DNA from: a bacterium
Lineage (GTDB): Bacteria; Bdellovibrionota_C; UBA2361; CALJRW01
NCBI GenBank assembly: GCA_031385045.1
Contig: JANNBC010000010.1
Span: forward strand, 43,293 to 107,292
Length of the DNA: 64,000 nucleotides
Direction of reading: 5' to 3'
Shown one piece after another: positions 41,356 to 62,450 of the stretch; positions within the stretch are counted from its first letter, which is position 1, and the number at the start of each line of letters is the position of its first letter. Both the position numbers and the translations under genes were made by a program. Below the pieces are notes generated by a model. That model saw only the letters and a program-made list of their open reading frames with translations. It did not search any database and had not been told where the DNA came from.

Positions 41356-42876
41356 TTAGGGAGTTTTTAGCTTAAATACTTTGGTGTCGCCTTGGCTATA
41401 AATTTCCTGATAGCTTGCTTGGAGTAGTTTGGGAGAGGCGATTACTTTTGCGGAACGTTGATTAATTATTAGTAGTGGAACGCCAGCCTTAACTTTCTGT
41501 TTAAGGCTTCTCATGCTTGTGACATGAAAATTCTCTTGTTCTGTAATACTTAGTTTTTGTCCAATATTTAAACCAAAGTTATTAACGATCTCTGGCACAA
41601 AGCTTGCTTGCGAATTAAATAAATATCCCGGCCAAATTGCCACTAATTCTTTTTTTTCTGGATTTAACTTAGCTAGTTCTAGCGCTAAAGCATCGAGCTC
41701 AAAAATACTATGAGGAGGAACAAGGGCGGTGCCTTTGTAGCCTTGGTTTGTTTTTGATGCTTGCTCGGTAAATGAGCGGAGATCGCTTGAAAATCCCCAA
41801 CCATAGGTGAATGTAATGATTAATAATCCAAGTAAGTATAATTGCTTGCCAAAGCCTCTAGTTAAAAGGGGATTGATTAGTAGAATGATATTTGTAATTA
41901 AGAAGGGAATTAAAATTGAAAAGTATTGTACCTGACTGGGAGTAGGGACAAAACTGATTAGTAATAATGCTCCAATAAATAATAAAGACCAATCAAAGCG
42001 GAGACGTTTAATGGAAGTTAATATCGCAGAGATGATTGCTGTCCAAATAAGGAGTGGAATTTGCAAGCTTGCAAATTTAATTGCGGCTCTAAGGCCTAAT
42101 AGTCCCTGAAGAATTAATTTTTTTTGCTCTAATGCTTCTGCAATTGACCAGTTAGATCTTAAGAGATGATAACCTAAGTTGTTAAACCAAAATTTTTCTG
42201 GATTAAGACAACAAAGAACTAACATTGGTGACCCGCCAACTAGTCCCCCAAAAATAAAAGGTAGTAATAGTCTCCGGTTTTTAAAGAATATAATTAGAAC
42301 ACAAGCCGGAGCTAATATTGCCACATAAGAGCGACAGCCAATTGCCGAGGCTAGAAAGATCCCCGCTAAAAATCCACGTAAGCGATTTGGAGTGACGGCA
42401 ATTAAATAGTAACTCGTATAAAGCAACACTGCGGTTAGTCCATAGTTTTTAATTGGCAAGAACCAGTTAAGAGCTAGGGCGGAGGTATTAAATAAGATTA
42501 ATCCAGTAAGGGCTGAAAAAGTTCTACAGTTATTTCGTAAACGTGCAAAAATTAACAATCCAATTAATGAAAATAAAAGTGAAGTAAAGATTCGAGCGCT
42601 AAGCCAACTGGCACCAAAGATTTTAAACCAACTGGCAATGATATAAGGCTGATAGGGTGCTTGTGGGTAAAAGAAATCTAAGTAAGGAACTTTGCCCTGG
42701 GATACTAGTTCTGCTGCTAATAAATAGAACCCTTCATCTGGTGCAACGTAGCGAGCTGTGCCGAGAGTGCTGATCCATAAAAACTGTGTGATAAGTAATA
42801 ATGGATAAATTAAACTGTTTTTTGTCCAGACAGAGTTAGAGCAGTAGGAGTCATGTCTTATCACTTTGGAATTCAT
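41356..42876 (-). CDS. ArnT/PMT-like GT-C glycosyltransferase
   Basis: DEGFY after TM1, G..PY.DF...Q.P, about 11 TMs. Confidence 0.8.
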   Translation of the reverse strand: MNSKVIRHDSYCSNSVWTKNSLIYPLLLITQFLWISTLGTARYVAPDEGFYLLAAELVSQGKVPYLDFFYPQAPYQPYIIASWFKIFGASWLSARIFTSLLFSLIGLLIFARLRNNCRTFSALTGLILFNTSALALNWFLPIKNYGLTAVLLYTSYYLIAVTPNRLRGFLAGIFLASAIGCRSYVAILAPACVLIIFFKNRRLLLPFIFGGLVGGSPMLVLCCLNPEKFWFNNLGYHLLRSNWSIAEALEQKKLILQGLLGLRAAIKFASLQIPLLIWTAIISAILTSIKRLRFDWSLLFIGALLLISFVPTPSQVQYFSILIPFLITNIILLINPLLTRGFGKQLYLLGLLIITFTYGWGFSSDLRSFTEQASKTNQGYKGTALVPPHSIFELDALALELAKLNPEKKELVAIWPGYLFNSQASFVPEIVNNFGLNIGQKLSITEQENFHVTSMRSLKQKVKAGVPLLIINQRSAKVIASPKLLQASYQEIYSQGDTKVFKLKTP

Positions 42877-43116
42877 CAGACTGATTGTTGGCTATATTTG
42901 AGTTAAGTGGTTTTCTTACTTGTAAGTCAAGGGGGATTAGAGCACTTCAAGCTAAACTTTTCAACTAAAGCTTTATTGATTGGAATAATAATTTTAATTA
43001 TTTCAGTGCGTTAAGGAAAGTTCTTGGAGAGTTACTTGGCCTCTAAAGATTAGACACATTTTAGAATTTGTGATTTCATATCGTCAGATTAATCAAACTC
43101 TTTTCGTAGTACTTCC

Positions 43117-44472
43117 ATGACAAAAAAAATAATCCTCATTTCAATCTTTATTCTGCTAGTTGCGGGGGTATCCTTTTATCTGATGGGTGCTAATAAGAAT
43201 CTGACAGTTAGTCCAGTTGCTGCAAGCTCCGAGTCTGATTTTGTTCTACCAGCAACAGATAATATCGTCTTCTTAGTGATAGATACTTTGCGGGCGGATC
43301 ACTTACCTTTTTATGGTTATAATGTTGATACAGCTCCATTTTTATCGGAGTTAGCCGCAAAATCAATTGTATTTGAAAATGCCTTTTCTGCTAGCTCCAC
43401 CACAGCTCCTTCCATGGCCTCAGTTTTTACTTCTGTCTATCCGTCTCAACATGGAGTGTTGATGGGGATGCAAGCAACCAAGCGTTTGAAGCAACAGTTA
43501 GATGAGCCGTATCAGGATCTTTCGATTAATAAAATTCCAGCAGAGTTATTAACCTTAGGTGAGATGATGAAGCAGTCTGGATTTAAGACTTATGGTGTTG
43601 CTGATAATTTAAATATTGATCATCAAATTGGCTATATCGAAGGCTTTGATAAATTTAAAACTTTTCAATACGAGGGAGCTGCCAATTTAAATAATGTTGC
43701 CATGGAATATTATCCCGATCTACAAAATTCCAAACATTTTTTATACTTGCACTATATGGATCCGCATATTCCATATCATCAGCGCGAGCCTTGGTTTGAT
43801 AAAAATCACCCCAATCCTAAAATTGCTGCCTATGATAGTGAAATCCGTTATGCCGATGAGCATATTAAAAAAATCTTTGAGCAGTACAATGTTTTAGAAA
43901 ACTCCTTAGTAGTTTTTCTATCTGATCATGGTGAAGAGCTGGGAGATCATGGTGATTATGGTCATGGTAGAAATCTTTATCCAGAAGTTATTCGCGTTCC
44001 CTTATTTGTTTATCATCGCAACTTAAAACCAGCGCGAGTTAAACAGCCAGTGTCAACAATTGATGTTTTACCGACCTTAGCTAAGGTTACTAAAATGGAA
44101 GCACAGCCTTATTGGGAAGGGGAATCACTAACCACCTATTTTAATGATCATGATTTTGTTAAGCCCCGCACGACATTCTCCCAATTATTAGGCCCTAAAG
44201 AGTATGTGCGAGAATTGTTTATGGCAGCGCATGATCAAGATCATTGGTTATACATTGACGCAATTAGTCAGGAGCGCAAAGAGTTATTTCATCTTTCCGA
44301 AGATCCACTTGCTTTGGAAGATTTATTATTAGCTTATCCTAATAAATCAACTGAGCTTTCTTCGGAGCTTGAGGTTCTCTCCAAGAAGAGCCCAATCAGC
44401 GCACCAGAAAAAGTCGATATTAAGATGAATAAAAAGACAGTCAATAAATTAAAAACTTTAGGATATTTCTAA
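43117..44472 (+). CDS. Sulfatase-like AlkP-superfamily protein (Thr nucleophile), N-terminal anchor, LGY tail
   Basis: IDTLRADH, STTAPSM, HYMDPH.PY, SDHGE; ends KLKTLGYF. Confidence 0.88.
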   Translation: MTKKIILISIFILLVAGVSFYLMGANKNLTVSPVAASSESDFVLPATDNIVFLVIDTLRADHLPFYGYNVDTAPFLSELAAKSIVFENAFSASSTTAPSMASVFTSVYPSQHGVLMGMQATKRLKQQLDEPYQDLSINKIPAELLTLGEMMKQSGFKTYGVADNLNIDHQIGYIEGFDKFKTFQYEGAANLNNVAMEYYPDLQNSKHFLYLHYMDPHIPYHQREPWFDKNHPNPKIAAYDSEIRYADEHIKKIFEQYNVLENSLVVFLSDHGEELGDHGDYGHGRNLYPEVIRVPLFVYHRNLKPARVKQPVSTIDVLPTLAKVTKMEAQPYWEGESLTTYFNDHDFVKPRTTFSQLLGPKEYVRELFMAAHDQDHWLYIDAISQERKELFHLSEDPLALEDLLLAYPNKSTELSSELEVLSKKSPISAPEKVDIKMNKKTVNKLKTLGYF

Positions 44473-44494
44473 TCATTAGTTTAAAAAAGTTTTT

Positions 44495-45889
44495 TTACTG
44501 AAAGCCTGTATAAAAAGAGGCTCTAGAAATCCGATTATTAGGAAGCTTTTCCGAGGTGTTACAAATACCATTAAAGATTTTAGGATTGCCATAGATCCAG
44601 ATACTCTTTTCATTATAGACAATGACTTCTTCTCGACAGTCTCCTAGAATATCAAAGTGTTGAGTGTAGTGTTCATCGTAACGGCGACTTGGTAGTCTTG
44701 CTGGAGGGAAAGGAAATTTAGCGATTAGTTTTCCTCTCGCGTTATAAAGAGCAGGGTCAGTGACATCTGTTCTAGAGACCAACAAGAAGCTCTGATCTTT
44801 AGCACCATTCCAGCCATCAACAGTATTAATCATTGTTAGAAAGCCAAAGGGCTCACTCTTCCAGAGTTTATGATTATCAGCATCAATGATCTTAACGATG
44901 CCTAATCTATTACGATCGACATAGGCAACTTCTTGTTCTGGCTTACCTTGAAAGTGTCCAAAGGTAGTGTGTTGGGCATGACGCATTTTAAAAGTTTGTA
45001 AGATTTCACCGTCAGGATTTAGTAGGTAGCCATTGCCACTGGCAGCATAGGAAATTGTTTTTTGACCATCATTTTGCATGTCTCCAATATCGATCGCGTC
45101 ATTATGCATCGGAATTTCTGGATGACTCCAAACTAGCGGATTAGAAATATTGGTAAAATCAAACAGACTATATCCAATTAGTAATTCATCAATCCCATCA
45201 TTATTAAAATCATAGGCCATAGGAAAGTGACCAGTGTTTAATCCTGTAGAATATATTTTGGTAAATGTATGATCGTAAATTGAGAAAGAATAGTATCGTG
45301 ATTTAAGTAATAGTGCGGGATGATCGCTGCTAAGAAGATTCGCAATAAAAATCACATCCCTTTCGTTACTATCAACTTCAACTTGCTGTATGAGAGAGCC
45401 ATCAAGTCCATTTAGTAAATAAAGTTGATTCTGTTGTAAGATTAAGACTTCGCTCTTGCCATCACCATCCCAATCATAGATTTGCACACCAAGATCTCGT
45501 GGTGAGTGATATGCTCCAAGAATACTTTTCCCCCAGGTCCAAAGAATCTTGCCAGCTAGATCCATTGCTAGCACATGGGTGACATGCTGTCCGCCACGAT
45601 TTTGGGCAACAACGATCTCTGATTTGCCATCACCGGTTAGATCCCCAAAACGAATATTGCGACCAGCATACTTTGTTGGGATATTAATGCTTTTTAGTAG
45701 TTTTCCGTTTTGATTAAGGGTGTTTAGAATTCTTTGCTTTCTTGCTGTTCTTTTTAGCGGTTGGCTAGATTCTAATGGGCAGGCTTCGCTAAATTGTAGA
45801 ATTATTAAAACATTTAGTAATAGGAGAATGCGAGAAAAGATAGGGAGTGATACTCGCATGGAAAAATAGTGACTAAAAGGGCTGAGCAT
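44495..45889 (-). CDS. Secreted FG-GAP beta-propeller, rhamnogalacturonan lyase (PL11)-like
   Basis: Repeated DxDGDG-type Ca-binding motifs (GDLTGDG, YDWDGDG, YDFNNDG) and His motifs NTGH, HND, HAQH. Confidence 0.65.
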   Translation of the reverse strand: MLSPFSHYFSMRVSLPIFSRILLLLNVLIILQFSEACPLESSQPLKRTARKQRILNTLNQNGKLLKSINIPTKYAGRNIRFGDLTGDGKSEIVVAQNRGGQHVTHVLAMDLAGKILWTWGKSILGAYHSPRDLGVQIYDWDGDGKSEVLILQQNQLYLLNGLDGSLIQQVEVDSNERDVIFIANLLSSDHPALLLKSRYYSFSIYDHTFTKIYSTGLNTGHFPMAYDFNNDGIDELLIGYSLFDFTNISNPLVWSHPEIPMHNDAIDIGDMQNDGQKTISYAASGNGYLLNPDGEILQTFKMRHAQHTTFGHFQGKPEQEVAYVDRNRLGIVKIIDADNHKLWKSEPFGFLTMINTVDGWNGAKDQSFLLVSRTDVTDPALYNARGKLIAKFPFPPARLPSRRYDEHYTQHFDILGDCREEVIVYNEKSIWIYGNPKIFNGICNTSEKLPNNRISRASFYTGFQ

Positions 45890-46140: not shown

Positions 46141-46155
46141 TACTAAGTAAAATTT

Positions 46156-47904
46156 ATGCCCTATAATTCTAAATTACTCAACTCCTTAGCCTATTACCTG
46201 TTACTTGTTACGCTAGTTGCGCTAACTCTTTGGGAGTTAATTTCTAAACGCCTGGGGATAATTTTGGATCCTTATCAGGTGAGATCTGATGCACTGCAAC
46301 ACAATTTTCCCTATTGGTCTTATCTTAGCAAAGATTATTTTAATGATAACTATATTGCTGACTATTATTTAAACACCATGATTCCTCTGGGGTTAAAAAC
46401 ACTTTTTTCCAGCTTGGCTCATTTTTTTACACCGATTCAGATTGGAAAATACTTAGCCCTTACATTGGCTATAATTTTTATTATCTTGTTAACTGAGAGT
46501 GCCAAGCATTTGTCAGGTAAAGTTGCCGGCGCGTTAACGGCATTTTTTACAACAGCCTATCTGGCTAGACACTTTATTTTAGCTGATGCCATTTCCCGAT
46601 CATTTGGTTATGTAGTTGTAGCACTTGGCTTGTATGCGATTATTAAAAGACAGCCTTGGACTTTGATGATTGCTGCCTGCCTTGGGGCTCTTTTTTATCC
46701 TGCGGCAGGGGCAATTCTGGCCTGTTATTGTGGGCTAGTTGCTTTCTGGCCTAATACTATTCCTGGTTCGTTCGATGATACAAATCTTTCCCAGAAAATA
46801 TTTACTCTATTAGGTTTAGGAGTTGTCTTGCTTGTTTTATTAGTTCCGATGATTTTAGGAGGAGGGAAGTATGGGGAAAGACTTTATATTAAAAATCAGG
46901 TTGAATTCCCTGAAGCTGGACTTGGTGGAAGATACGCTTTGCAAGATCTGGGGATTAATAAATACCCCCTACCAATCGCGCTTTATCGATCGTTTAATAA
47001 AGTTTTTCTAAACAATAAAGATTTATTTCCTAGCTCAGCAGTTCTAGCTCCAGCTACTTTTAAAGTTAAGGAGAAGAAGAATCATAATTTAAATTCTGAT
47101 CGCCAATTAGTTTTTTGGACAATGATCGTGATTGTCTTTAGCGGTATTCTAGTTAATAGTTTCTATCGTAAAAGCAAAATAGATCCAAACTGGATTAGAG
47201 TTGGGCAATTTTTGTTTTCTGTTGTCGGGATTTACTATTTGGCAGTATTATTATTCCCTCATTTATATATGCCATCACGCTACCCCTTAATTAGTATACC
47301 AGCATTAGCATTAGTTGTAGTTCCAGCCGCGATAGTTAGTTTTATAAGGATTTTCAAGTCCCGAATTCTTGCTTCTGGAATCTTAGTTTTGCTTGTTGCC
47401 GTATTGATTCATTTATCTGGCATGTATCAGACAAGGCTTAGGGAGCAAATGTCTTATCGAACGAATGCACCAATCTATGACTTTTTGAAGAAGCTTCCTG
47501 CTACTACTTTAATTGCTGGTTGGCCAATTGGGATTATTGATTCAGTTCCCTACTTTTCTGGCCGGGGACCTTTTTTAACAATGGAAACTCATCAAGTTTT
47601 TCGTAGTAAATATTTACTAGAAATGAGAGCTAGGACTTATGCCATAATTGATGCCTATTTTGATAATTCGCTAGGTGCAATCTTGAATTTAAAAAACAAA
47701 TTTGGCGTGACGCATTTAATTTTAGAAAAACAATATTTTAAAAAAGCTCCTAAGTATTTTAAGCCTTTTGATAAATATATAAAATCAAAGCCTAACTTAA
47801 TTAGTAATCAGTGGACTCAGATTTATCAATCGCCAGAAGTGAAGTCAGCGATTGTCTTTAAGCATGGTTCCTATGTCGTAATCGATCTTAGTTTATTGAG
47901 TTAA
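46156..47904 (+). CDS. Polytopic membrane protein, probable GT-C-fold transferase
   Basis: DALQH loop after TM1, RSF and PSRY motifs, about 11 TMs, soluble C-terminal domain with GVTH. Confidence 0.6.
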   Translation: MPYNSKLLNSLAYYLLLVTLVALTLWELISKRLGIILDPYQVRSDALQHNFPYWSYLSKDYFNDNYIADYYLNTMIPLGLKTLFSSLAHFFTPIQIGKYLALTLAIIFIILLTESAKHLSGKVAGALTAFFTTAYLARHFILADAISRSFGYVVVALGLYAIIKRQPWTLMIAACLGALFYPAAGAILACYCGLVAFWPNTIPGSFDDTNLSQKIFTLLGLGVVLLVLLVPMILGGGKYGERLYIKNQVEFPEAGLGGRYALQDLGINKYPLPIALYRSFNKVFLNNKDLFPSSAVLAPATFKVKEKKNHNLNSDRQLVFWTMIVIVFSGILVNSFYRKSKIDPNWIRVGQFLFSVVGIYYLAVLLFPHLYMPSRYPLISIPALALVVVPAAIVSFIRIFKSRILASGILVLLVAVLIHLSGMYQTRLREQMSYRTNAPIYDFLKKLPATTLIAGWPIGIIDSVPYFSGRGPFLTMETHQVFRSKYLLEMRARTYAIIDAYFDNSLGAILNLKNKFGVTHLILEKQYFKKAPKYFKPFDKYIKSKPNLISNQWTQIYQSPEVKSAIVFKHGSYVVIDLSLLS

Positions 47905-47908: not shown

Positions 47909-49834
47909 TTATTTACTAATCCGTAGAAGCTGTGCCACACATTCTTGAATGCTTAAGGCGTTAGTATCAATCGCTACGTCTGGATTTTTTGGTGCTTCGT
48001 AAGGAGCACTAATCCCAGTAAAGTTTTTAATTTCTCCTTGTCGAGCTTTTTGATAAAGCAGATGCGGGTCTCTTTTCTCGCAAATCTCTAGTGATGTTGA
48101 TAGATAAACTTCAATAAAACAAGAATCTCCAATAATCTTTCGAGCTTGTTCACGATCTTCCACTGTTGGACTGATAAAGGCGCAAATTACGCTAACACCA
48201 GCCTCGTTAAATAGCTTGGCAACTTCTGCGACGCGACGTAAATTTTCTTGGCGATCTTTGGCGGAGAATCCTAAGTCTTTATTAAGTCCTGTTCGTAGGT
48301 TGTCACCATCTAGTAAGTAGACCGGGCGATTATTTTCAAATAGCTTTTTCTCAAAAGCCTTTGCAATTGTTGATTTGCCAGATCCTGAAAGTCCAGTAAA
48401 CCAATATGTCCGTGCCACATGACCAAACTTCTGTTCGCGATCGCTTCGCTCAATTAAGCCACTTTCATGATGTAGGTTTTGGGATCGAGGTTTTTCAGAA
48501 TCTGCGCCTAGTAGTTCTAAATCTTGGCTCGAGCGATCCATGATCATTCCTGCTGCTACCGTCGCAAAATTTTCTGGATCAATTAAAATAAAATTTCCAG
48601 TTCCGCGATTTGCTTGATAACTATCCAGAAATAGTGGTGCTGTTGATTGCAATGACATTCGGCCGATTTCATTAAGTTCCAGTGCTCCACCTGGCTTACG
48701 ACTAAGTGCATTGATGTCAATTTTATACTTAACCTCAGTAATTAAAACTCTAGCTTCATTTACTGTATGACGAATAAAGTATTTTTTATTAATATCTAAT
48801 GGCTGCTCTGACATCCAGATAACCATGGCTTCAAAGTTTGTTTCAACCTTAGGGGCATTACCTGGGCGAACTAACATGCTACCTCGTCCTACATCTAGTT
48901 GATCTTCCAAAGTGATAACTACTGATTGATTAGCGCGAGCTTCGCTTAGCTGATGATCCTTATTTAGGACGGAATGTAATTCAATCGTCTTAACTTTACT
49001 CTTCTTCATGGAAGGTAAGGCTAGGACATCTTCTCCAACGCGAATAACTCCAGAACTTAACATCCCAGCATAACCTCTAAAGTTAGCACTAGGGTTAATA
49101 ATGCACTGAACAGGAAAGCGAAAGTCTACTAGGTTGGCATCTGCTTGGTTATAAACATTTTCCAGATACTCAATTAAAGTCTCTCCGTGATACCAAGGCA
49201 TTTTCTTGCTAGGAGTCACAATATTATCACCTTCTAGTGCTGATACCGGAATAAAGCGCACGTCTCTAATTCCTAACTTTTCAGCAAAGGCCATATAGTC
49301 TTTTTTGATCTGCACAAAAACATCTTCGGCATAATCCACCATGTCCATTTTATTGACAGCGACCAAAAGACGAGGAACTCCCATCAGGGAAGCGATAAAA
49401 GAATGGCGACGAGTTTGAGTAACAATTCCCTTGCGAGCATCAATTAAAATAATTGTCACATCAGCAGTTGAAGCTCCCGTTGCCATGTTGCGAGTGTATT
49501 GCTCGTGACCTGGTGTGTCGGCTAGGATAAATTTTCTTTTAGGAGTTGAGAAGTAACGGTAAGCAACATCAATTGTAATACCTTGCTCTTGTTCCGCTTT
49601 TAATCCATCAGTAACCAGGGCTAGTTCCAGAGATTCCTTGCCACGTTTAACAGAACGCTTCATTAGAGAATCTAGTTGATCCTCATAAATGTTTTTAGAG
49701 TCATGTAACAAACGTCCAATCAGTGTTGATTTACCATCATCTACTGAGCCGGCAGTAGAGAAGCGGAGCATGGAACACTTGGCTGAATCTTCTAAGAATT
49801 TAATAATACTATGATCTGAATTTTGTTCTTGCAT
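47909..49834 (-). CDS. cysNC: Bifunctional sulfate adenylyltransferase subunit 1 / APS kinase
   Basis: GSVDDGKST, EQGITIDVAY, DTPGHEQY, NKMD; C-terminal GLSGSGKST, LDGDNLR, FTGISAPYE. Confidence 0.97.
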   Translation of the reverse strand: MQEQNSDHSIIKFLEDSAKCSMLRFSTAGSVDDGKSTLIGRLLHDSKNIYEDQLDSLMKRSVKRGKESLELALVTDGLKAEQEQGITIDVAYRYFSTPKRKFILADTPGHEQYTRNMATGASTADVTIILIDARKGIVTQTRRHSFIASLMGVPRLLVAVNKMDMVDYAEDVFVQIKKDYMAFAEKLGIRDVRFIPVSALEGDNIVTPSKKMPWYHGETLIEYLENVYNQADANLVDFRFPVQCIINPSANFRGYAGMLSSGVIRVGEDVLALPSMKKSKVKTIELHSVLNKDHQLSEARANQSVVITLEDQLDVGRGSMLVRPGNAPKVETNFEAMVIWMSEQPLDINKKYFIRHTVNEARVLITEVKYKIDINALSRKPGGALELNEIGRMSLQSTAPLFLDSYQANRGTGNFILIDPENFATVAAGMIMDRSSQDLELLGADSEKPRSQNLHHESGLIERSDREQKFGHVARTYWFTGLSGSGKSTIAKAFEKKLFENNRPVYLLDGDNLRTGLNKDLGFSAKDRQENLRRVAEVAKLFNEAGVSVICAFISPTVEDREQARKIIGDSCFIEVYLSTSLEICEKRDPHLLYQKARQGEIKNFTGISAPYEAPKNPDVAIDTNALSIQECVAQLLRISK

Positions 49835-49835: not shown

Positions 49836-50729
49836 TTAAAAGTAACCCTCTCGTTTTTTCATCTCCATTGATCCATCACGGTCGTGATCGATAATTCTAG
49901 TTGCGCGTTCTGATGTTCTAGTCGTCATCATTTCGGCAATAATATCTTCTACGCTTGTTGCTTCCGATCTAACTGCCCCAGTGCAAGGCGAGCATCCTAG
50001 GGTGCGAAAACGACAAAGGACTTCTTCTGATTTTTCACCAGGAAAAACTTTAGCTGCTTGGTTAACAGGAATTAATTGTTCTCCACGAACCACAACTTCG
50101 CGTTTTTTGGCAAAGTATAATGGGACAATTGGAATTTGCTCTAAGTGGATGTAATGCCAGACATCAAGCTCAGTCCAGTTAGAAATTGGAAAAACTCGAA
50201 TCGACTCACCTTGCGCAACTTTTCCATTATATAAATTCCAAAGCTCGGGTCGTTGGCTACGTGGTTCCCATTGTCCAAAGCGATCACGAAAAGAAAAAAC
50301 TCTTTCTTTGGCACGAGAACGTTCTTCGTCACGGCGAGCTCCGCCCATGGCAGCATCAAAATTATATTTCTTTAAACCATCAAGTAGAGCTTTAGTTTTT
50401 AACTGTCCACAACATTGTTGTGTTCCTAGATCGTAAGGGTTGGTGTTATTGGCAATCGCTTTTTCATTGCGATAGACAAGTAATTCCGCTCCGATTGATT
50501 TTGTATACTCATCACGAAAGGCATACATCTCGGGAAATTTGAATCCAGTATCAATATGCATTAACGGAAAAGGAATTTTCCCAGGATAGAATGCTTTCTT
50601 GGCCAGGTGCAGAAGTACAGAAGAGTCTTTGCCCACAGAGTAAAGCATTACTGGTCGCTCAAATTGAGCAGCAACCTCGCGCATAATATAAATACTTTCT
50701 GATTCTAGTTGTTGTAGATAAGTGATCAT
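49836..50729 (-). CDS. cysD: Sulfate adenylyltransferase subunit 2
   Basis: [42 protein letters not shown]. Confidence 0.97.
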
Positions 50730-52429: not shown

Positions 52430-53797
52430 ATGTTAGATAAAATCTGCCTTATTTTGATAGCCAGTTTGGCTATTTTTGCTGGAAGTTGCCAGCGTCAAGT
52501 CCAAATCCCTAATTTAAAAGATTTAAACGTACTGTTAATTGTTGTTGATACTCTCGGCGCTAAACATTTAGAGGCCTATAATCGTGAGTTAAAGAATGCT
52601 CCCAATATAACTCGCCTGGCCGATGAAGGTGTGCTTTTTGAGCAAGCATATTCTGCGGCTCCTTGGACCAAGCCGGCAATCTCTTCTATTTTTACTGGCA
52701 AACTTCCCTCTCAGCATAACGTCCGAGGGATTGATGATAATTTATTAGATGATCAACTAACTATTGCTGAGATCTTTAAGGAGCGTGGTTACAAAACAGC
52801 CGGTAGAGTTAGTCATACTTTCATTTCCGCTAAAAAAGGTTTTAGTCAGGGCTTTGATAGCTATAATGTTGTGCCATTTAAAGGGAATGTTCATGATGTG
52901 ATCACATCTCAGGAGGTGACAGCAGAGGGTCTTGATTGGTTAAAGGAGCAGCAAGCAAAAAAAGATGGCAAAAACTTTTTCATGTTCTTACATTATTTTG
53001 ACCCTCATTATACTTACCAGCATCATCAAGAGTTTGATCGCAGTTCTCATTATAAAGGCCCGTTAACTTCTGGTATGTACATTCGAAAACTTCGAGAATT
53101 AATTCCCACTCTGACACCGGCAGATATTGAATATTTAGTTAATCTTTATCATGAAGAAATTGCTTATACCGATTTTTATATTGGAAAGGTGTTAGATTAT
53201 TTGAAAGAGTCTGGCTTGGCGGACAATACGGTAGTGATTTTAACAGCAGATCATGGGGAAGAGTTCTTAGAGCACGGGGATATCGGCCATACAGTCACAC
53301 TCTATGACGAATTAGTCCGAGTTCCTTTGATCATTTCTTTACCTAAATATCTTCGTCCCCATGTCGTTAAAGAAAATGTTTCTACAATGGATATTTTACC
53401 AACTCTCATGAGTTTAGATCCTGTTAAGCTGGAATATGGATTTTCTGGTATATCCTTACTTGATGCTTTAACTGGCAAACAAGCCTTGTCTCCTATTCGT
53501 GATATTAAATTTGAAGTTGATTATCAAGCTGGAATTCAAGCTTTCAAAGCAGGTGTTAAGCAGGATGAGTTTAAGTTAATTCATGATAAGGAAACTAAGG
53601 CTTGGGAGCTTCATAATCTAGCAGTAGACCCAGCTGAATTAAATAATCAAAAAGAAGTTTATCCGGGAGACTTTGAGAGAATAAAACCTAGCTTGCAAAA
53701 CTTTATGGATTCACAAGGGGCTACAAATGGAACTCGCACCGAGGAGCAACGAACTCCAGAAGAGATTAAGCAGCTTAAAACATTAGGGTACATGTAG
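52430..53797 (+). CDS. Sulfatase-like lipoprotein (Thr nucleophile), LGY tail
   Basis: Lipobox AGSC, VDTL, PWTKPA, HYFDPH, ADHGEE; ends QLKTLGYM. Confidence 0.88.
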   Translation: MLDKICLILIASLAIFAGSCQRQVQIPNLKDLNVLLIVVDTLGAKHLEAYNRELKNAPNITRLADEGVLFEQAYSAAPWTKPAISSIFTGKLPSQHNVRGIDDNLLDDQLTIAEIFKERGYKTAGRVSHTFISAKKGFSQGFDSYNVVPFKGNVHDVITSQEVTAEGLDWLKEQQAKKDGKNFFMFLHYFDPHYTYQHHQEFDRSSHYKGPLTSGMYIRKLRELIPTLTPADIEYLVNLYHEEIAYTDFYIGKVLDYLKESGLADNTVVILTADHGEEFLEHGDIGHTVTLYDELVRVPLIISLPKYLRPHVVKENVSTMDILPTLMSLDPVKLEYGFSGISLLDALTGKQALSPIRDIKFEVDYQAGIQAFKAGVKQDEFKLIHDKETKAWELHNLAVDPAELNNQKEVYPGDFERIKPSLQNFMDSQGATNGTRTEEQRTPEEIKQLKTLGYM

Positions 53798-53858
53798 CTT
53801 TATTTATATATAGTCTGCAAAATTTAAATTGATAGAAACTTTAAAAAATAAATACGGG

Positions 53859-55202
53859 ATGATTCTTAAAACATTTATTCGTTTATTAACTTTTTCAATT
53901 TTTTTGATCTGCTGTTTGACCTTAGGTTCTTGTCAGTTATTTAAGAGCAAAAAGCCCAATGTCATTTTTCTAATGCTTGATACTTTGCGAGCCGATCATC
54001 TGGGTATTTATGGTTACGAGCGCAACACCAGTCCAAACATAGATCAGTTTGCCAGAGAAAATTTACTTTTTAAAAATGCGATTACTGCTGTTCCCTGGAC
54101 TCCCCCTTCTGTTGCGGGGATGTTAAGTGGATTATATCCGACTTCCCATAATTTTATGCCACCAAATAGTCGAGAGGAAGCAACCAGTAGTGTTTCTAAG
54201 TTGAGCGATGCTGTTTTAACACTCCCTGAAGTTTTAAAAGCACAAGGGTATCAAACACATGCAATTAGTTCTAACCCCTGGATTACGGATACTTTTGGTT
54301 TTAATCAGGGATATGAAAAATTTGAATACCTAGAGCGTGAGCAGGCTGATATTATTACAGATTCAGGAATTAAAGCGATCGATCAAATGAGTGCTAAGGA
54401 TCAGCCATTTTTTCTTTATTTACATTATCTAGATCCGCATGAGCCATACACGCCTCCAAATAAGTATGTTCAGGCTTTTAAAGGCCCACTTAAGTCTCGT
54501 GAATATGATGTGGAAATGCAACGAAAGATTGGTTTGTATGATGGTGAAATCGCCTTCATGGATGAATGTTTAGGTAAGTTGTTTACTTATCTTAAAGAAA
54601 AAAATCTTTATGAGAATTCAATTATTGTAATTGTTGGTGATCATGGTGAGCAGTTCATGGAACATGGAAATATTAGTCATGGCAATGAATTGTTTAATCC
54701 CGAGTTGCATGTGCCAATGATGATTAAGACTGGGAAGCAGGTGCAACAAAGAGTTGTGGATTATGCTGTTAGTAATATTGATTTATTTCCGACAATTTTA
54801 GATTTAGTGGGCTTAGTACCGCCAACTAATTATCAAAGTGTTTCTTTAGTTAAGGATGAAAACTCTCAAGCCCGTGGTGGGGTGCTTTCTGAAATTAAGA
54901 GAAAATATAACCAGCGTTCTTTTACTAAGTTTGATGGCCAGCGTTTGTTAGTTGGATCTCGCAGTCAAGATCTTACTGTTGATGCTAAGGATGCTGTCGC
55001 TAATTCTATTGGTGTTTTTGATTCCTTTAAAGATATTTGGGAAGAAGCTCCGATTGAGAATCCCGAGCTTCTAAAACAGTTGCAGGCCGAGTTCCAAGCC
55101 GAGCTTCAGAAATCAGAGAGTTTAAAAGTAAAGTCGGCAACAGGTGATGCCGTTGATGAGACAACGATCTCGCAGTTAGAATCTCTTGGGTATTTGAAAT
55201 AA
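53859..55202 (+). CDS. Sulfatase-like lipoprotein (Thr nucleophile), LGY tail (ORF track starts at 53829)
   Basis: Lipobox LGSC, LDTLRADH, PWTPPS, HYLDPH.PY, GDHGE; ends QLESLGYLK. Confidence 0.88.
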   Translation: MILKTFIRLLTFSIFLICCLTLGSCQLFKSKKPNVIFLMLDTLRADHLGIYGYERNTSPNIDQFARENLLFKNAITAVPWTPPSVAGMLSGLYPTSHNFMPPNSREEATSSVSKLSDAVLTLPEVLKAQGYQTHAISSNPWITDTFGFNQGYEKFEYLEREQADIITDSGIKAIDQMSAKDQPFFLYLHYLDPHEPYTPPNKYVQAFKGPLKSREYDVEMQRKIGLYDGEIAFMDECLGKLFTYLKEKNLYENSIIVIVGDHGEQFMEHGNISHGNELFNPELHVPMMIKTGKQVQQRVVDYAVSNIDLFPTILDLVGLVPPTNYQSVSLVKDENSQARGGVLSEIKRKYNQRSFTKFDGQRLLVGSRSQDLTVDAKDAVANSIGVFDSFKDIWEEAPIENPELLKQLQAEFQAELQKSESLKVKSATGDAVDETTISQLESLGYLK

Positions 55203-55204: not shown

Positions 55205-57289
55205 ATGATGAATAAAAATAAAGTAATCTTAATTTTCTTGGCACTGTGTTTACAGCAAGCCATGCTACCTTCTTTTGCTTTTGCTTATATTGGACCAGGT
55301 GCTGGCTTTGCCTTTTTAGGTTCAGCCTTTGTTTTCATTTTAACAATTGGCCTCGCAATTTTAACTATTCTTTTTTGGCCTTTACAGCTTGTCTTAAGAA
55401 AACTTCGGAAGAAAGGAATTTCTAGGAAAGCTAGAACTCGTCGCGTTGTAATTTTGGGTCTTGATGGATTAGAGCCAACTTTAGTGGAAAGATTAATGGG
55501 TGAAGGCCGCCTTCCAAATTTTCAAAAGTTAAAAGATCAAGGTGCCTATTCTAGATTGGGAACAACCTTGCCTTCGCTTTCTCCTGTTGCTTGGTCAACT
55601 TTTCAAACAGGAGTAAATCCTGGAGCACATAATATCTTTGATTTTTTAACTCGTGATAAGCGCTATTGTTTACCTTTGCTTTCTTCAACAGAAACTACAA
55701 CAGTTGCGAAGTATTTTCGCTTTGGTCCTTTTAAGGTTAAACGTGGTGAGCGCGCCGAAGTGAAATTACTACGAAAGTCTAAGCCTTTTTGGAAAATCCT
55801 TGGGGATAAAGGGATTTTTTCTAATATTATTCGAGTTCCAATTTCATATCCACCAGAAAAATTTGCTGGAAATATTCTTTCAGCAATGTGTACGCCAGAC
55901 TTACGTGGGACACAGGGAACCTTTTCTTTTTTTACAAGTGATCCAGGACATCACGAGCTTAGTACCGATGGGACAACTGGTGGAGAAGTTAAATCGCTGG
56001 ACAAGAGGGGAGATTCCTATCATGGTATTTTAGTTGGTCCACCAGATGCTGCTAACCCCAGTCAAAATTTAACATTAGATTTTATTGTCACACCAAAGAG
56101 TCCAACGCTAGCTGATTTCCAAATTGGCGAAGAGAAATTTTCGTTGGAGCTTGGTAAATTGTCAGATTGGATTTCTGTTCGATTTGGCAAAAAGATTTTT
56201 GGCATCGCACGTTTTTGTTTGCGTGCTTCACAGCCCGAATGTTCTGTGTATATTTCCCCCATTAATGTCGATCCAAGTAATCCGGCACTTCCCATCTCAC
56301 AGCCAATATATTTTTCTAATTGGATTGCCAAGAGTCAAGGTCTGTTTGGGACACTAGGAATGTTGGAAGACACTTGGGGGCGTAATGAATTAGCACTTAA
56401 TGACAGTGCTTTTTTAGAACAAGCCTACTTAACTCATGCTGAGCGTGAGAAAATGTTTTTTGAAACCTTAAGCAAAACTCGTGAAGGTTTATGTTGTTGT
56501 GTCTTTGATGCTAGTGACCGCATTCAGCATATGTTCTGGCGTTACATGGATCCTAACCATCCATCTCCTTTAGAAGGCGATGAATTTAAGGACACTATTC
56601 CAAAGATGTACGAGCGAATGGATCAGCTGGTCGGTAAGACCATGTCTAAATTAAATCCGAAGGATACCTTTATAATTTTAAGTGATCATGGATTCGCTTC
56701 CTTCCGACGTTGTATTGGGCTGAATGCTTGGTTGTATCAAAATGGTTATTTAGCTTTGAAGGAAGGTGCCAAGCCAGGACGTGATTATTTCCAAGATGTA
56801 GATTGGAGTAAGACGAAAGCTTTTGCTGTAGGACTATCGGGAATTTATATTAATCGCAAAGGTCGCGAGGTCAATGGGATTGTTGCAGAGGAAGAAGCGA
56901 AGTTATTAAAGCAGGAATTGTCCGATAAGATTGAGCAATTAAGAGACCCTCAGGATAATGCTAATGTCGTTAGTAAGGTCTATGACACGGCAGTTCATTA
57001 CACTGGAATTTATGCGAAAGATGCTCCAGACTTGATCATTGGATATTATCCAGGATTTAGAGTCTCGTGGGATTCCGTTACTGGAACAGTAGAAGAAGAA
57101 ATTTTCTCGGATAATTTAAAAGCTTGGAGTGGGGATCATCATGTCGATCCAAAATTAATTCCGGGAATCTTATTTGTTAATCAGAAGAAAGAACTAAATA
57201 ATCCACACATTGCTGATTTGGCACCTACCGTCTTGGATCTTTTTAATGTGTCGATACCCAAATATATGGAAGGAAAGGTTTTAATCTAA
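55205..57289 (+). CDS. AlkP-superfamily phosphodiesterase/NPP-like protein with a signal peptide-YIGPG-TM N-terminus
   Basis: GLDG, LPSLSPVAWSTF.TG.NPG.H.IFDF, DRIQH, SDHGF, SGDH. Confidence 0.85.
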   Translation: MMNKNKVILIFLALCLQQAMLPSFAFAYIGPGAGFAFLGSAFVFILTIGLAILTILFWPLQLVLRKLRKKGISRKARTRRVVILGLDGLEPTLVERLMGEGRLPNFQKLKDQGAYSRLGTTLPSLSPVAWSTFQTGVNPGAHNIFDFLTRDKRYCLPLLSSTETTTVAKYFRFGPFKVKRGERAEVKLLRKSKPFWKILGDKGIFSNIIRVPISYPPEKFAGNILSAMCTPDLRGTQGTFSFFTSDPGHHELSTDGTTGGEVKSLDKRGDSYHGILVGPPDAANPSQNLTLDFIVTPKSPTLADFQIGEEKFSLELGKLSDWISVRFGKKIFGIARFCLRASQPECSVYISPINVDPSNPALPISQPIYFSNWIAKSQGLFGTLGMLEDTWGRNELALNDSAFLEQAYLTHAEREKMFFETLSKTREGLCCCVFDASDRIQHMFWRYMDPNHPSPLEGDEFKDTIPKMYERMDQLVGKTMSKLNPKDTFIILSDHGFASFRRCIGLNAWLYQNGYLALKEGAKPGRDYFQDVDWSKTKAFAVGLSGIYINRKGREVNGIVAEEEAKLLKQELSDKIEQLRDPQDNANVVSKVYDTAVHYTGIYAKDAPDLIIGYYPGFRVSWDSVTGTVEEEIFSDNLKAWSGDHHVDPKLIPGILFVNQKKELNNPHIADLAPTVLDLFNVSIPKYMEGKVLI

Positions 57290-57504: not shown

Positions 57505-58098
57505 TTAACAACTACCAGCGCCCCAAGTACCTTTTGTGTTGTACTTTGATCCATCAGTCCAAATATAACTGTATTTTGTGAAATGATTATTGTTATTATT
57601 AAACATTGAACAATCAGTTAGATCGAACGAAAGTCCAAAACTAATCGGAGTAGCTCCACTAGTAGTTATAGTCAAGTCTTCGCTATAATGAACAAAGGCA
57701 TTCCAAGTGCTAGGTGGAGTTAGCATTTCTTTAGGATAGATACTGTTTATTTCCTCTTGGGAGAGTAAGTCATATCTAGGAGTACCGCCGACACCACCAA
57801 CGAGAGTTGATACTTCGAGGCGAGGATTAGAGCCACCAGCAAACCACTGCACAGCAAAACTTGTCCTGACATCTCCCAGTCTGTCAGCTGCAATATCCCT
57901 TGCCGCTTGGTTAGCGACAGTGAAGTCGTGTAATGTCGATAGGATAGTTGCCTTTTTTGCAGAATCAGAAAACTGTCTAAATCCAGCCACAGAAATTGCC
58001 GAGAGAATTCCGACAATTACAATAGTTACCAATAGCTCAACAAGGGTAAATGCAGAAATTTTAGAAATATTATTGGCACGGCCTCTCAGTAAAATCAT
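57505..58098 (-). CDS. Type IV pilin-like protein
   Basis: Class III signal A|FTLVELLVTIVIVGILSAI; C-terminal Cys pair. Confidence 0.85.
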   Translation of the reverse strand: MILLRGRANNISKISAFTLVELLVTIVIVGILSAISVAGFRQFSDSAKKATILSTLHDFTVANQAARDIAADRLGDVRTSFAVQWFAGGSNPRLEVSTLVGGVGGTPRYDLLSQEEINSIYPKEMLTPPSTWNAFVHYSEDLTITTSGATPISFGLSFDLTDCSMFNNNNNHFTKYSYIWTDGSKYNTKGTWGAGSC

Positions 58099-58408: not shown

Positions 58409-58624
58409 ATGTTCAAGAAATCAATCAAAATCGACAACGTCCTGTTTGACAAATTAACAGTGGCTGCTCAAATCAAGAAATGTTCTTCGATGGAAGAGTT
58501 TGCTTTGCAAGTTTTAGAAGCGGAAGCAGATAAAGTTTTGACAGAAACTGCCAAGGGCGATTTATCTCAAGATCAGATTGATGATATTACAAATAAACTA
58601 AAAGGCTTAGGTTATTTGGAATAG
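58409..58624 (+). CDS. Small ribbon-helix-helix (CopG-like) protein with a C-terminal LGY tail (ORF track starts at 58397)
   Basis: Strand SIKID, helix, SS turn, helix MEEFALQVLE, acidic linker, ends KLKGLGYLE. Confidence 0.75.
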   Translation: MFKKSIKIDNVLFDKLTVAAQIKKCSSMEEFALQVLEAEADKVLTETAKGDLSQDQIDDITNKLKGLGYLE

Positions 58625-58636
58625 TAAAGAAATTTC

Positions 58637-59446
58637 ATGGGAGCTAAATTACTAACCTACATTAACCAAATTGTCTCATTTTTAGTTTGGCCATTCACCT
58701 TATTACCTTCTTGGTTTGGTTTACTAGCTATCTCAGTTGTCGCCGGCATGGGCTTGCTCTGGATTTATGGGAAAGTTTCTAATCAAAATAAAATTCGTTA
58801 TGTGAAGAGTAAGATTTATGCTTCGCTCTTAGAGTCAATTCTTTTTAGGCATGATGTTTGGATGACATTAAAAGCGCAAGGTAAGATGCTCTTTTACGGA
58901 GGCAGATATTTTACACTAGCAATTTTTCCTGTTTTAATTCTTGCCGCTCCTTCTATTCTCTTATTGTCGGAACTAAATGAGCAATATGCATCCAAGTCTT
59001 TAGATTCTAAATCAGAAGCAATTGTTCAAATGACTTTGAGCGACGCTAGTAAGCTCTATGAGGTAAAGCTGGAAGCACCTGCTGGTCTTGATGTAACTCC
59101 ACCCGTTAGAATTCCTGCGAGTAAGCAAGTCTTTTGGAAGATTAAAACTTCGGAGCCTGGCAACCAAGAAGTAAATTTTCAAATTGCTGATTTTAATTTC
59201 CCTAAAACGTTATTTGTTGGTTCAGGCAAGAATCACGTCGGAGCTGTATGGAAAAGCTCTTGGGCGGGCAAGCTGTTGTATCCAGCAGGACCTGCTAGTA
59301 TGCCATATGTTCAGAGTTTAACTATTAATTATCCAGAACAACTTTATAGCCTTGGATTATTCGAAGTTAATTGGTTAATTTTCTTTCTAATATTCTCGAT
59401 GCTTTCGGGGATTGTTGTAAGTAAGTATCTGGGCGTCGCTATTTAA
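58637..59446 (+). CDS. Membrane protein resembling DUF106/EMC3/TMCO1 (Oxa1 superfamily), with an inserted beta-rich domain
   Basis: TM, SNQ.KI..VK coiled region, FPVLIL..P TM, beta domain, final TM WL.FF.I.S....SK.LGV. Confidence 0.6.
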   Translation: MGAKLLTYINQIVSFLVWPFTLLPSWFGLLAISVVAGMGLLWIYGKVSNQNKIRYVKSKIYASLLESILFRHDVWMTLKAQGKMLFYGGRYFTLAIFPVLILAAPSILLLSELNEQYASKSLDSKSEAIVQMTLSDASKLYEVKLEAPAGLDVTPPVRIPASKQVFWKIKTSEPGNQEVNFQIADFNFPKTLFVGSGKNHVGAVWKSSWAGKLLYPAGPASMPYVQSLTINYPEQLYSLGLFEVNWLIFFLIFSMLSGIVVSKYLGVAI

Positions 59447-59586: not shown

Positions 59587-60444
59587 ATGTCTAACGTGAA
59601 AAATAATTTCATCATGATCACTTTCGATTCCTGTCGATTTGATACTTTTTTAGCTGCTAATACTCCAAACATCTCCCGCCTTGGTCAGACTGAAAAGTGT
59701 TACTCCTTTGCTAGTTGGACATTTCCATCACACCTTGTCTATTTAATGGGAGCGGGCCCTCACACAAGTCCGAAAGGTGTCTTTGCCTCTGAAGTATATA
59801 AAAAGGACTTTGAAAATTGGGGAGATAGATTAAATATCCCTGACATTTCCTTTAAAGGTTTTGTTCCCAGACTTTCACTCCCAGCATTTTTAAAAAGCCA
59901 AGGCTATAAAACTAATGCCTTAGTTTCCATGCCTGTTTTAAACCCAACTACTATCGTAAATACTCATTTTGATCGCTTTCAATTAATGGATAAGCATAAT
60001 GATTTTAATGCGATTATTGATGCGATGATTTTTGAGCCAGAAGTTCCGCAGTTCTATTTATTAAATATTGGTGAAACGCATTATCCTTACACTCTCCCAG
60101 GTGAAGGTAATGACTTGCCGATCATTCATGGGATGCATGGGATTTTCAAGCATATGGATGATTTCGTTGCTGGTAACTCTGCTCCTGCTCAAGCAGCCGA
60201 TCATGGCGGTGATAAATTTTTCCACATGGATCGCATGTTGGCGCTCAAGGAAAAACAACGCACAAACATCGAATATCTCGATGGTCTGTTTGAGAAGTTA
60301 TATGAAAAAGTTCCTGAAAATACTTACGTCCAGGTAATGTCTGATCACGGGGAGTGCTTTGGTGAAGATGGCTACTTTGGCCATGGACCGATTATGCACG
60401 AAAAAGTTTTTGAAATCTTTAAAGTGGAAGGTAAATTTAAATAA
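59587..60444 (+). CDS. Short cytoplasmic sulfatase-like protein (Thr nucleophile, no signal peptide, no LGY tail; ORF track starts at 59554)
   Basis: FDSCRFD, SWTFPSH, ETHYPY, SDHGE.FGEDG..GH; AAGGA SD before the ATG at 59587. Confidence 0.82.
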   Translation: MSNVKNNFIMITFDSCRFDTFLAANTPNISRLGQTEKCYSFASWTFPSHLVYLMGAGPHTSPKGVFASEVYKKDFENWGDRLNIPDISFKGFVPRLSLPAFLKSQGYKTNALVSMPVLNPTTIVNTHFDRFQLMDKHNDFNAIIDAMIFEPEVPQFYLLNIGETHYPYTLPGEGNDLPIIHGMHGIFKHMDDFVAGNSAPAQAADHGGDKFFHMDRMLALKEKQRTNIEYLDGLFEKLYEKVPENTYVQVMSDHGECFGEDGYFGHGPIMHEKVFEIFKVEGKFK

Positions 60445-62450
60445 TGGGAATTACTCGTCGCCAATTTATTAAGGGAACTGCTGCCAGCCTAGCTGTTGGA
60501 GCGGCGAGTAGTATAATTACTCCAGGTTCTGCTTTCGCTAAGTTTCCGCATATCCGAAATAATAAGATTGCACGCAAGGCGATCGTCTTGGGCTTTGATG
60601 GGATGGATCCGGATTTAACTCGCAAGTTTATTGCGGAAGGACACATGCCAACATTTAAAAAAATGATTGAAAAGGGTTGGCACTTTGGTGAGCTGCAAAG
60701 CACAATGCCACCACAAAGTCCTGTAGCTTGGGCTAGTTTTATAACCGGAACAAATCCAGGGGGAACAGGGATTTTTGATTTCGTACATCGTGATCCGGCC
60801 AACTTTGCTCCCTATCTTTCTACTTCTAGAAGTTTTGATGCCGAGAAGACCTATCAAGTTGGCAACTGGAATATTCCCTTAAGTGGTGGGCGAGTGGACT
60901 TGATGCGTAAAGGCATTCCATTTTGGGATTACTTAACAAAAGAAGATATTCCATCAACAGTTTTCCAAATTCCTGCTAATTTTCCGATTGTGCAGTCAGG
61001 TACTAATATGATTAGCGGAATGGGAACGCCTGATCTTTTAGGTTCTTATGGTACATATACTTATTATACTGATACTCTGGTTCCTGGTTCAGAGAAGTTT
61101 GTTGGAGGGCGAGTAATCCGCGTGCGCGGAGCTGATAATACTTTTAAAACAACTTTGCCTGGGCCTCAAAATACTTTCCGCGTTGATGGACGCGCAACAA
61201 CAGTCGATTTTACAATTAATCGTGATTCTTATGAGAAAGTTCTAAAGATTACAATCCAAGGGCAAGATATAATTCTGCGCCAAGGCGAATGGTCTGGATG
61301 GATTCCCTTAACTTTTGAATTAATCCCTCATTTAGCATCTGCGCCAGCGATGGTGCGTTTCTTTGCACAAGAAGTCCACCCTAACTTTAAACTCTATGTC
61401 TCCCCAATTAACATCGATCCTCTAAATCCAGCACTGCCAATTTCGGGCCCAGTCGAATATGCCAGCGATCTAGCTAATGCTGTGGGACGTTTTTATACTC
61501 AAGGATTTCCAGCTGACAGTAAGGCTTTATCCACAGGTGTTTTTTCTGATGATGAATATTTAGTTCAATCTAAAATTGTTCTTCAGGAAAACCTTGCTTC
61601 CTTTGAATATCAGTTAAAAAATTTCCAGGAAGGTTTATTCTATTTCTATTTTTCGTCCACAGATCAGAATCAACATATGATGTCTCGTTTAATGGATCCA
61701 ACTCATCCGCAGTACAATCCAAATGGAAGTCCAGAAACAAAAAATGCTGTGCTTTATTTCTACAAGGCGATGGATGATGTCTTAGAACAAACCTTGTCTA
61801 AGGTTGATAGCTCAACGTTAGTGATCGCTCTTTCTGATCATGGGTTTGCACCTTTTACTAGAGAATTTAATTTAAGCACTTGGTTGGTGAACGAAGGTTT
61901 TACTGCGGTGTATAATCCAAAGGATATGGAAGATGCCGAAGTTTATTCCTGCGTTGATTGGGAAAAGACTCAAGCTTATGCCTTAGGAATTAATGGTCTT
62001 TATATTAATATCAAAGGGCGAGAGAAGAATGGATCTGTTGCCCAAGAGCAAGTTCAGGCAATTAAAGATCAGATTATTAGCAAGCTCTCCCAAGTGAAAG
62101 ATCCGCTAAATAATCAACCAATTATTACTTCTGTCTATGACGCTGAAAAACTTTACTCTGGGGAGTTCGCCAGTTCTGCTCCAGACTTAGTGGTTGGTTA
62201 TCAACGGGGATATCGTATTTCAGATGAAGCTGTTCTTGGTAAGTTCCCAAAAGAGATTGTAACTGATCGTAAGGATAAGTGGGCCTCAGATCATTGCTCA
62301 GATCCAATGGTTGTTCCTGGGATGATCCTAACAAATAAAACTTGTAATACTCAAGGTGCAGGGCTTTGGGATATGGGACCAAGTATTCTTAAAGCTTTTG
62401 GTATTGATACCCCAAAGCAGATGAATGGCAAGAATGTACTAGAAAGCTAA
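60444..62450 (+). CDS. Tat-exported AlkP-superfamily phosphodiesterase/NPP-like protein
   Basis: TRRQFIKG twin-arginine signal ending AFA; GFDGMD, PPQSPVAWASF.TG, DQNQH, SDHGF, SDH; TAATG coupling to the upstream gene. Confidence 0.88.
   Translation: MGITRRQFIKGTAASLAVGAASSIITPGSAFAKFPHIRNNKIARKAIVLGFDGMDPDLTRKFIAEGHMPTFKKMIEKGWHFGELQSTMPPQSPVAWASFITGTNPGGTGIFDFVHRDPANFAPYLSTSRSFDAEKTYQVGNWNIPLSGGRVDLMRKGIPFWDYLTKEDIPSTVFQIPANFPIVQSGTNMISGMGTPDLLGSYGTYTYYTDTLVPGSEKFVGGRVIRVRGADNTFKTTLPGPQNTFRVDGRATTVDFTINRDSYEKVLKITIQGQDIILRQGEWSGWIPLTFELIPHLASAPAMVRFFAQEVHPNFKLYVSPINIDPLNPALPISGPVEYASDLANAVGRFYTQGFPADSKALSTGVFSDDEYLVQSKIVLQENLASFEYQLKNFQEGLFYFYFSSTDQNQHMMSRLMDPTHPQYNPNGSPETKNAVLYFYKAMDDVLEQTLSKVDSSTLVIALSDHGFAPFTREFNLSTWLVNEGFTAVYNPKDMEDAEVYSCVDWEKTQAYALGINGLYINIKGREKNGSVAQEQVQAIKDQIISKLSQVKDPLNNQPIITSVYDAEKLYSGEFASSAPDLVVGYQRGYRISDEAVLGKFPKEIVTDRKDKWASDHCSDPMVVPGMILTNKTCNTQGAGLWDMGPSILKAFGIDTPKQMNGKNVLES

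Follow-up and report, generated by a model that had tools for sequence, protein, structure and literature searches.

Analysis of a 64,000-nucleotide stretch of DNA (the window) on contig C17 of a 2.8-Mb, 94.9% complete draft Bdellovibrionota genome (G000) revealed, between positions 41356 and 62450, a core of six gene families that co-travel across one Bdellovibrionota order and are accompanied there by genes for sulfate activation. The core comprises a microprotein (MIC), a membrane protein (MEM), a cytoplasmic AlkP enzyme (STM), two NPP-like proteins (NPP-A and NPP-B), and a set of sulfatase-like paralogues (TSULF). We judge it quite probable that the system performs sulfotransfer of some form, and we lean, with less assurance, toward a sulfotransferase-independent covalent relay that carries activated sulfate across the membrane to envelope acceptors. 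The original prediction, which favored group transfer over hydrolysis at this cluster, is partly supported by the sequence comparisons: co-occurrence with sulfate activation, independence from sulfotransferases, and the lack of a reductive sink agree with sulfate transfer, whereas the obligation for 3′-phosphoadenosine 5′-phosphosulfate (PAPS) and the proposed pilin target were not supported. All the open reading frames (ORFs) it listed for 41356..62450 are present at their positions. The system falls within none of the families tested, and a literature search, conducted largely without subscription papers, found no description of the operon or of a bacterial multi-protein relay. The core marker protein alone covers 2745 sequence clusters.

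Sulfate activation at the locus is encoded by cysD (49836..50729, minus strand), the ATP sulfurylase small subunit, and cysNC (47909..49834, minus strand), a fusion of the large subunit with adenosine 5′-phosphosulfate (APS) kinase that carries the sole APS kinase found in G000. Both genes, with their kinase domain, had been recognized from the sequence, and both exceed curated cut-offs (TIGR02039, 461 bits against 397, and PRK05506, 882 bits against 715, respectively). The order sample comprised 91 genomes (G000 and G034-G123, the upper bound being inferred from family tallies), of which those with MEM or STM detected were scored as core-positive (47/91) and the others as core-free (44/91); the tallies ignore kinship, and since related genomes are not independent, the strength of the associations is overstated. 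ATP sulfurylase was found by family search in 46 of the 47 core genomes, to which a cysNC at a contig edge in G097 is added, versus 16/44 core-free genomes; sulfate activation accompanies the core in 47/47 genomes, as the proposed co-occurrence had anticipated. In the high-quality subset of 53 genomes (completeness of 90% or more and contamination of 5% or less, with four genomes set aside because their quality is not known), the counts were 32/32 and 9/21. Among families, ATP sulfurylase occurs in all 14 with the core and in one of the seven without it, and that one family holds the expansions of ASST, the PAPS-independent arylsulfotransferase. APS kinase (matches weaker than 1e-20 left uncounted) is found in 40/47 core and 13/44 core-free genomes and, within genus g31, in 16/16 and 3/19. 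The enzymes themselves follow the same division, with NPP-like proteins (typically a single copy each of A and B) in 47/47 core versus 1/44 core-free genomes, and TSULF in 45/47 versus 4/44.

A sulfate-activation gene lies at most 30 kb from MEM in 18/45 genomes and within that same distance of another component in 12 more, by distances read by hand from the coordinates. Three ATP sulfurylase types adjoin the core: CysDNC, a 267-aa CysD with a kinase-less CysN, and a Sat-APS kinase fusion, Sat being unrelated to both CysD-containing types. This triple recruitment bears on the possibility that the enzymes transfer a phospho-group (phosphoethanolamine, phosphoglycerol, or a nucleotide) in the manner of EptA and LtaS, with cysDN linked to them by shared regulation or island history. 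Against such phospho-transfer, which we consider improbable, stand the three recruited types, the persistence of co-occurrence in family f3, whose genes are unlinked, and the mutual exclusion of ASST expansions and the core described below.

The original prediction took PAPS as the donor. By two models, APS kinase is absent from five core genomes that are 91-94% complete (G036, G037, G039, G061, and G064); 7/47 core genomes in total lack it, five of them at least 91% complete, and PAPS as an obligatory donor is not sustained. In G036, G061, and G064, CysD is the sole PF01507 protein, so that CysH is missing as well. G036 (93% complete, with CysDN and the whole system) gave no match for APS kinase, CysH, PF00685, PF13469, PF03567, PF09037, or ASST; by known pathways, the consumers of APS in this genome are therefore limited to the AlkP proteins. 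As good core genomes lack the kinase, the donor may be APS and not PAPS, and the sequence evidence points to APS being sufficient, the alternatives being draft incompleteness or an unrecognized kinase. G000 itself also encodes a second, kinase-less cysDN (C37:15564-17795), a diverged cysD-like gene (C53:65018-65911), and a CysH-like gene (C26:161656-162666), despite having no sulfite-reductase domain.

The window had been read as devoid of sulfotransferases, APS/PAPS reductases, and formylglycine-generating enzymes (FGE), a reading that holds for the window and fails for the genome, where sulfotransferase-like, ASST, FGE-family, and CysH-like genes lie elsewhere. PF00685, PF13469, and PF03567 matched none of the 20 locus proteins, their genome matches lying on C10 and C32, and no sulfotransferase family matched any of 112 neighbors of 40 related core loci; in G041, one Sulfotransfer_3 gene lies approximately 30 kb from the core. 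Across the order, canonical sulfotransferases (counted as PF00685, PF13469, or PF03567, with PF05935, PF17784, PF06990, and KpsS-type transferases outside the search) showed no association with the core (18/47 core versus 20/44 core-free genomes). They appear dispensable to it, as expected for an independent route, since 29/47 core genomes lack one, and 25/47 lack both a canonical sulfotransferase and ASST. At least three ASST copies were counted in 0/47 core and 10/44 core-free genomes, and 11 of the 13 core-free genomes with APS kinase carry a canonical sulfotransferase or ASST (beside cysDNC in G040, G060, and G066). A beta-propeller of the PF14269 (ASST) type was not detected in the locus, its two G000 copies lying elsewhere.

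Several of these genes merit description in their own right. That G000 has no sulfotransferase at all is not supported, given two ASST-like genes and an apparently intact Sulfotransfer_2-like gene (C32:4277-4951), which sits among glycosyltransferase genes and is a possible PAPS sink. On C10, a decayed polysaccharide locus (C10:441-4471, L001) with GT2 and wzm/wzt-like genes holds a Sulfotransfer_2-like gene with an early stop that is cut by an insertion sequence (IS)-like gene, and an Stf0-like fragment adjoining a transposase. In G000 (C54:250640-253396) and in G041 (L174:10763-13481), an ASST-like gene adjoins a PMT_2-like GT-C gene, mirroring the pairing of TSULF with GT-C genes. Expanded ASST sets (3-9 copies) are found in core-free G040, G047, G049, G050, and G112-G117; in G040, a Sulfotransfer_3 gene beside cysDNC is accompanied by ketosynthase and MMPL genes, a gene content that suggests a shuttle for a sulfated small molecule or lipid. 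In genus g31, Sulfotransfer_3 genes occur without a clear APS kinase match (e.g. G086, G087, G090, G095, G096, G102, and G104).

Another explanation is hydrolytic scavenging, in which the Thr enzymes would be formylglycine-independent sulfatases that release sulfate for uptake and activation. The closest folds are indeed S1 sulfatases, TSULF proteins are exported, and sulfate ABC/SulP transporter genes lie near TSULF in several genomes, yet no reductive branch accompanies them: a sulfite-reductase domain was found in only one of the 47 core genomes, and with CysH also missing from G036, G061, and G064, activated sulfate would not be assimilable by a known route. Nor do 25/47 core genomes hold a canonical sulfotransferase or ASST to consume it, and scavenging leaves STM, NPP-A, MIC, and MEM unexplained. 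The near-absence of sulfite reductase, the dispensability of sulfotransferases, and the restriction of ASST expansions to core-free genomes favor sulfotransfer, and scavenging strikes us as unlikely. Besides the transporter genes, three observations weigh against our preferred relay. Canonical sulfotransferases coexist with the core in the 18/47 genomes counted above, G000 included; linkage to cysDN did not appear in other lineages, as none of 80 metagenome loci, of which 31 carried core genes, had cysD or cysN in its flanks; and STM relatives occur without the core at 18 loci, also on Mesorhizobium plasmids, so that STM alone is no marker of the system.

The five Thr sulfatase-fold proteins initially proposed were recovered as four PF00884 proteins with Thr at the nucleophile position and their paralogue STM (hhalign 99.6%). 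TSULF1 (43117..44472, plus strand; Thr96) is membrane-anchored, while TSULF2 (50733..52166, minus strand; Thr84), TSULF3 (52430..53797, plus strand; Thr80), and TSULF4 (53829..55202, plus strand; Thr91) are exported lipoproteins; TSULF4 is the copy that usually lies immediately upstream of NPP-A. All four are sulfatase-like, lack the Arg of C/S-x-P-x-R, and end in L-x-x-L-G-Y (the LGY tail). STM (59587..60444, plus strand) is an STM4013-like cytoplasmic Thr45 AlkP enzyme without signal, cap domain, or LGY tail; it is single-copy in 44 genomes and gave weak sulfatase matches only. The formylglycine motif is replaced by T-A-P-S-M, T-A-P-S-H, T-K-P-A-I, T-P-P-S-V, and T-F-P-S-H, the nucleophile Thr is invariant in 24/24 aligned sequences, and the S1 catalytic set is replaced relative to 7P24 (D-T for D-D, D-H for D-Q, and G-H for D-K). 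No C/S-x-P-x-R sulfatase is present in the G000 genome, and we rejected FGE maturation. On a Mesorhizobium plasmid (NZ_CP050298.1), a core-free cluster of radical-SAM, aminotransferase, and P450 genes contains an STM relative of 51% identity (L181:14995-15921).

The two NPP-like AlkP proteins were correctly anticipated (PF01663), apart from their nucleophile, which is Ser (S-P-V-A-W) and not Thr. NPP-B (60444..62450, plus strand; Ser92) carries a Tat signal and is predicted to be periplasmic; a sequence search found no solved relative. Its paralogue NPP-A (55205..57289, plus strand; Ser126) has a signal peptide, one transmembrane (TM) segment with YIGPGAG, and a basic patch, from which, by the positive-inside rule, its catalytic domain is predicted to be cytoplasmic. 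Its layout is an N-out single TM, and some lineages lack the signal peptide. The two paralogues are thus predicted, from sequence features, to lie on opposite sides of the membrane. MEM (58637..59446, plus strand), originally called DUF106-like with good reason, is a three-TM protein of the Oxa1/EMC3/TMCO1 fold in which a beta-sandwich separates TM2 from TM3; Foldseek gave Ig-like matches only. At L134 and L126, MEM and an NPP domain (NPP-B) form a single fused protein; a search for longer, fused forms, in itself weak evidence, found none, and a plasmid search found no MEM relative.

MIC (58409..58624, plus strand) is a 71-aa cytoplasmic microprotein present in 38/40 related core loci. Its gene and its LGY tail are genuine (L-x-G-L-G-Y is invariant in 66 aligned sequences), as had been proposed, while the ribbon-helix-helix (RHH) assignment of its N-terminus draws on weak, mostly sub-cut-off TacA1 matches in 26/66 members (best 2.9e-5). 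The Atlas clusters holding MIC are named CopG-family (0.93), and a genome scan with MIC alone as query returned one relative. The tail exceeds chance, as six of 2076 genome ORFs of at least 150 aa end in L..LGY and five of the six are Thr sulfatase-like proteins, the fifth of which is a solitary gene at C20:15509-16879. Kinship of the CysD tail with the LGY tail is not significant (hhalign 0.6%), and a literal match, the terminal string L-R-S-L-G-Y-M, is confined to the 267-aa CysD type. In the TSULF3 model the LGY helix has low confidence (block pLDDT 54-69), so docking of the tail in cis remains unsupported. A role in docking would suit two single genomes, namely G061, which lacks both MIC and STM, and core-free G040, whose TSULF relatives lack the tail. 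A complex prediction for STM, MEM, and MIC (ipSAE 0.04) is evidence neither way.

These features can be arranged into a putative relay of ping-pong Thr/Ser sulfo-enzyme intermediates, with APS as the donor, or PAPS where the kinase exists. CysDN or Sat would produce APS, and cytoplasmic STM would load the sulfuryl group on Thr45, its active site perhaps completed by the LGY tail of MIC. Membrane-tethered NPP-A would then hand the group to a carrier in the membrane, in all probability a lipid, which Oxa1-fold MEM would move through a polar groove while holding the complex together. Insertases are described as able to scramble lipids. Periplasmic NPP-B would unload the carrier, and exported TSULF paralogues, each dedicated to one acceptor, would sulfate sugars on those envelope glycans or glycoproteins that GT-C enzymes produce. 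The layout would be symmetric: each membrane side would have a TSULF-type enzyme and an NPP-type one, and the tail missing from STM might come from MIC. The order in which STM, NPP-A, MEM, and NPP-B act is a guess, as are the carrier and the acceptor.

Sulfotransfer might also proceed without a covalent relay, with APS, PAPS, or a sulfated lipid-linked sugar crossing the membrane and MEM serving solely to insert or scaffold the N-out TM of NPP-A. The insertase fold of MEM and the single-TM layout of NPP-A, whose signal peptide is missing in some lineages, suit this arrangement, as do two genomes of a second order (G019 and G028), in which TSULF, cysD/cysN, and a hairpin-anchored NPP are clustered without MEM or STM; the clustering of TSULF and NPP with cysD and cysN there also counts in favor of the relay. 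However, G000 also encodes a normal YidC, and the arrangement accounts neither for the retention, by almost every core genome, of an NPP paralogue on each side nor for the MEM-NPP-B fusions; we give it a minor share of the probability. A more specific version of the covalent relay seems to us conceivable but less likely than not: a third sulfation route, comprising a chain of Thr/Ser sulfo-enzymes on both faces of the inner membrane fed by APS and not PAPS, an Oxa1-family protein converted from protein insertion to flipping a sulfated lipid carrier, and a C-terminal LGY helix, common to MIC, one CysD type, and the exported transferases, that would dock donors onto NPP-like hubs.

Sulfated surface glycans are known from few bacteria, and genome mining relies on PAPS-sulfotransferase families. 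If the relay exists, many uncultured bacteria would sulfate their envelopes by an unrecognized route, many "sulfatase" annotations would have the reaction direction wrong, APS would act as a sulfuryl donor, and the Oxa1 fold would work beyond protein insertion. The third route, if true, would further reassign a large family of Thr "sulfatase-like hydrolase/transferase" proteins as sulfotransferases. The proposal also suggests a donor and a mechanism for the archaeal enzymes Agl30/Agl31 discussed below and offers candidate enzymes for PAPS-free glycan sulfation.

The remaining genes of the cluster are accessory or probable passengers. Of two membrane proteins described as GT-C-like, the first (41356..42876, minus strand) matches PMT_2 (PF13231, 3.8e-9) and is a candidate acceptor-pathway gene, whose homologues in G041 and G081 adjoin TSULF genes. 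The second (46156..47904, plus strand) has nine predicted TM segments and resembles GT-C by layout only; it has no Pfam match, which leaves its GT-C identity unconfirmed, and hhalign found no significant relation to the first. GT-C-like genes adjoin TSULF genes in several genomes. An exported FG-GAP repeat protein (44495..45889, minus strand), unlisted in the original prediction and not conserved in the fetched loci, is probably a passenger. A type IV pilin-like gene (57505..58098, minus strand, opposite to the core) is probably an insertion outside the system. G000 holds 42 pilin-motif ORFs, including a close paralogue on C53. The in-cluster pilin is unique to this window, with pilin motifs at one of 40 other loci, 6-8 kb away, and we rejected its proposed role as the sulfation target on these grounds. 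Tad-type pseudopilin genes lie upstream of the cluster (34767-38330, with 37078-37626 matching TadE), an IS3-like transposase pair with copies on other contigs directly follows the core (62882-63942), and Rfam had zero matches in 41000-64000. In G081 (94% complete), a TSULF-NPP-A pair (C7:135186-138658) and cysDNC are retained while MEM, STM, and NPP-B were not found, a possible partial loss of the core.

The system shares elements with several known ones. MEM has the TM1-coiled coil-TM2-TM3 core of the Oxa1 superfamily (TMCO1/EMC3/Get1/DUF106 and YidC), from which it differs in being bacterial, in its periplasmic beta-sandwich between TM2 and TM3, and in belonging to an operon of enzymes in a genome that has its own YidC as well. 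TSULF shares the Sulfatase/AlkP fold of S1 formylglycine sulfatases but has Thr for Cys/Ser and no Arg at +4. EptA/MCR, LtaS, and YejM/PbgA, Thr AlkP envelope transferases with a periplasmic catalytic domain and ping-pong logic, are structural neighbors with the same Thr nucleophile and DHGE motif. The window proteins have one N-terminal TM or a lipobox in place of the five-TM lipid-binding domain of the EptA/LtaS class, whose donors are phospholipids, and score at most 58 bits against family cut-offs of at least 400; several N-terminal TMs are present in some distant TSULF relatives. As in NodPQ/RaxPQ-type clusters, CysD and a CysN-APS kinase fusion occur in the window without reductive genes, an arrangement lacking from 7/47 core genomes, and the linked PAPS sulfotransferase of that type is not in the window.

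The caprazamycin shuttle couples a PAPS sulfotransferase to a periplasmic ASST in two-step sulfation, the former having a P-loop fold and the latter a beta-propeller with a His nucleophile. Core-free relatives seem to use such a route instead. It differs from the core in its folds and in requiring PAPS, which five good core genomes without APS kinase would not provide; it likewise has cytoplasmic activation feeding exported transferase paralogues. The ASST class is described in PMC11625862. The enzyme chemistry proposed here finds an archaeal precedent, by analogy, in Agl30/Agl31 of Halobacterium salinarum (VNG1056C/VNG1057C), sulfatase-fold proteins that sulfate a glycan in vivo and are thought, according to their description, to act on a lipid-linked glycan (PMC11980604), a point that also suits transfer without a relay. 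The AlkP/sulfatase fold is common to both. PAPS is not mentioned in the main text of that report (PMC11980604), and for what are two stand-alone enzymes no donor or membrane relay is known from it. The bacterial core, likened to them by description, has six families, counts an Oxa1-fold protein among them, and is consistently tied to ATP sulfurylase.

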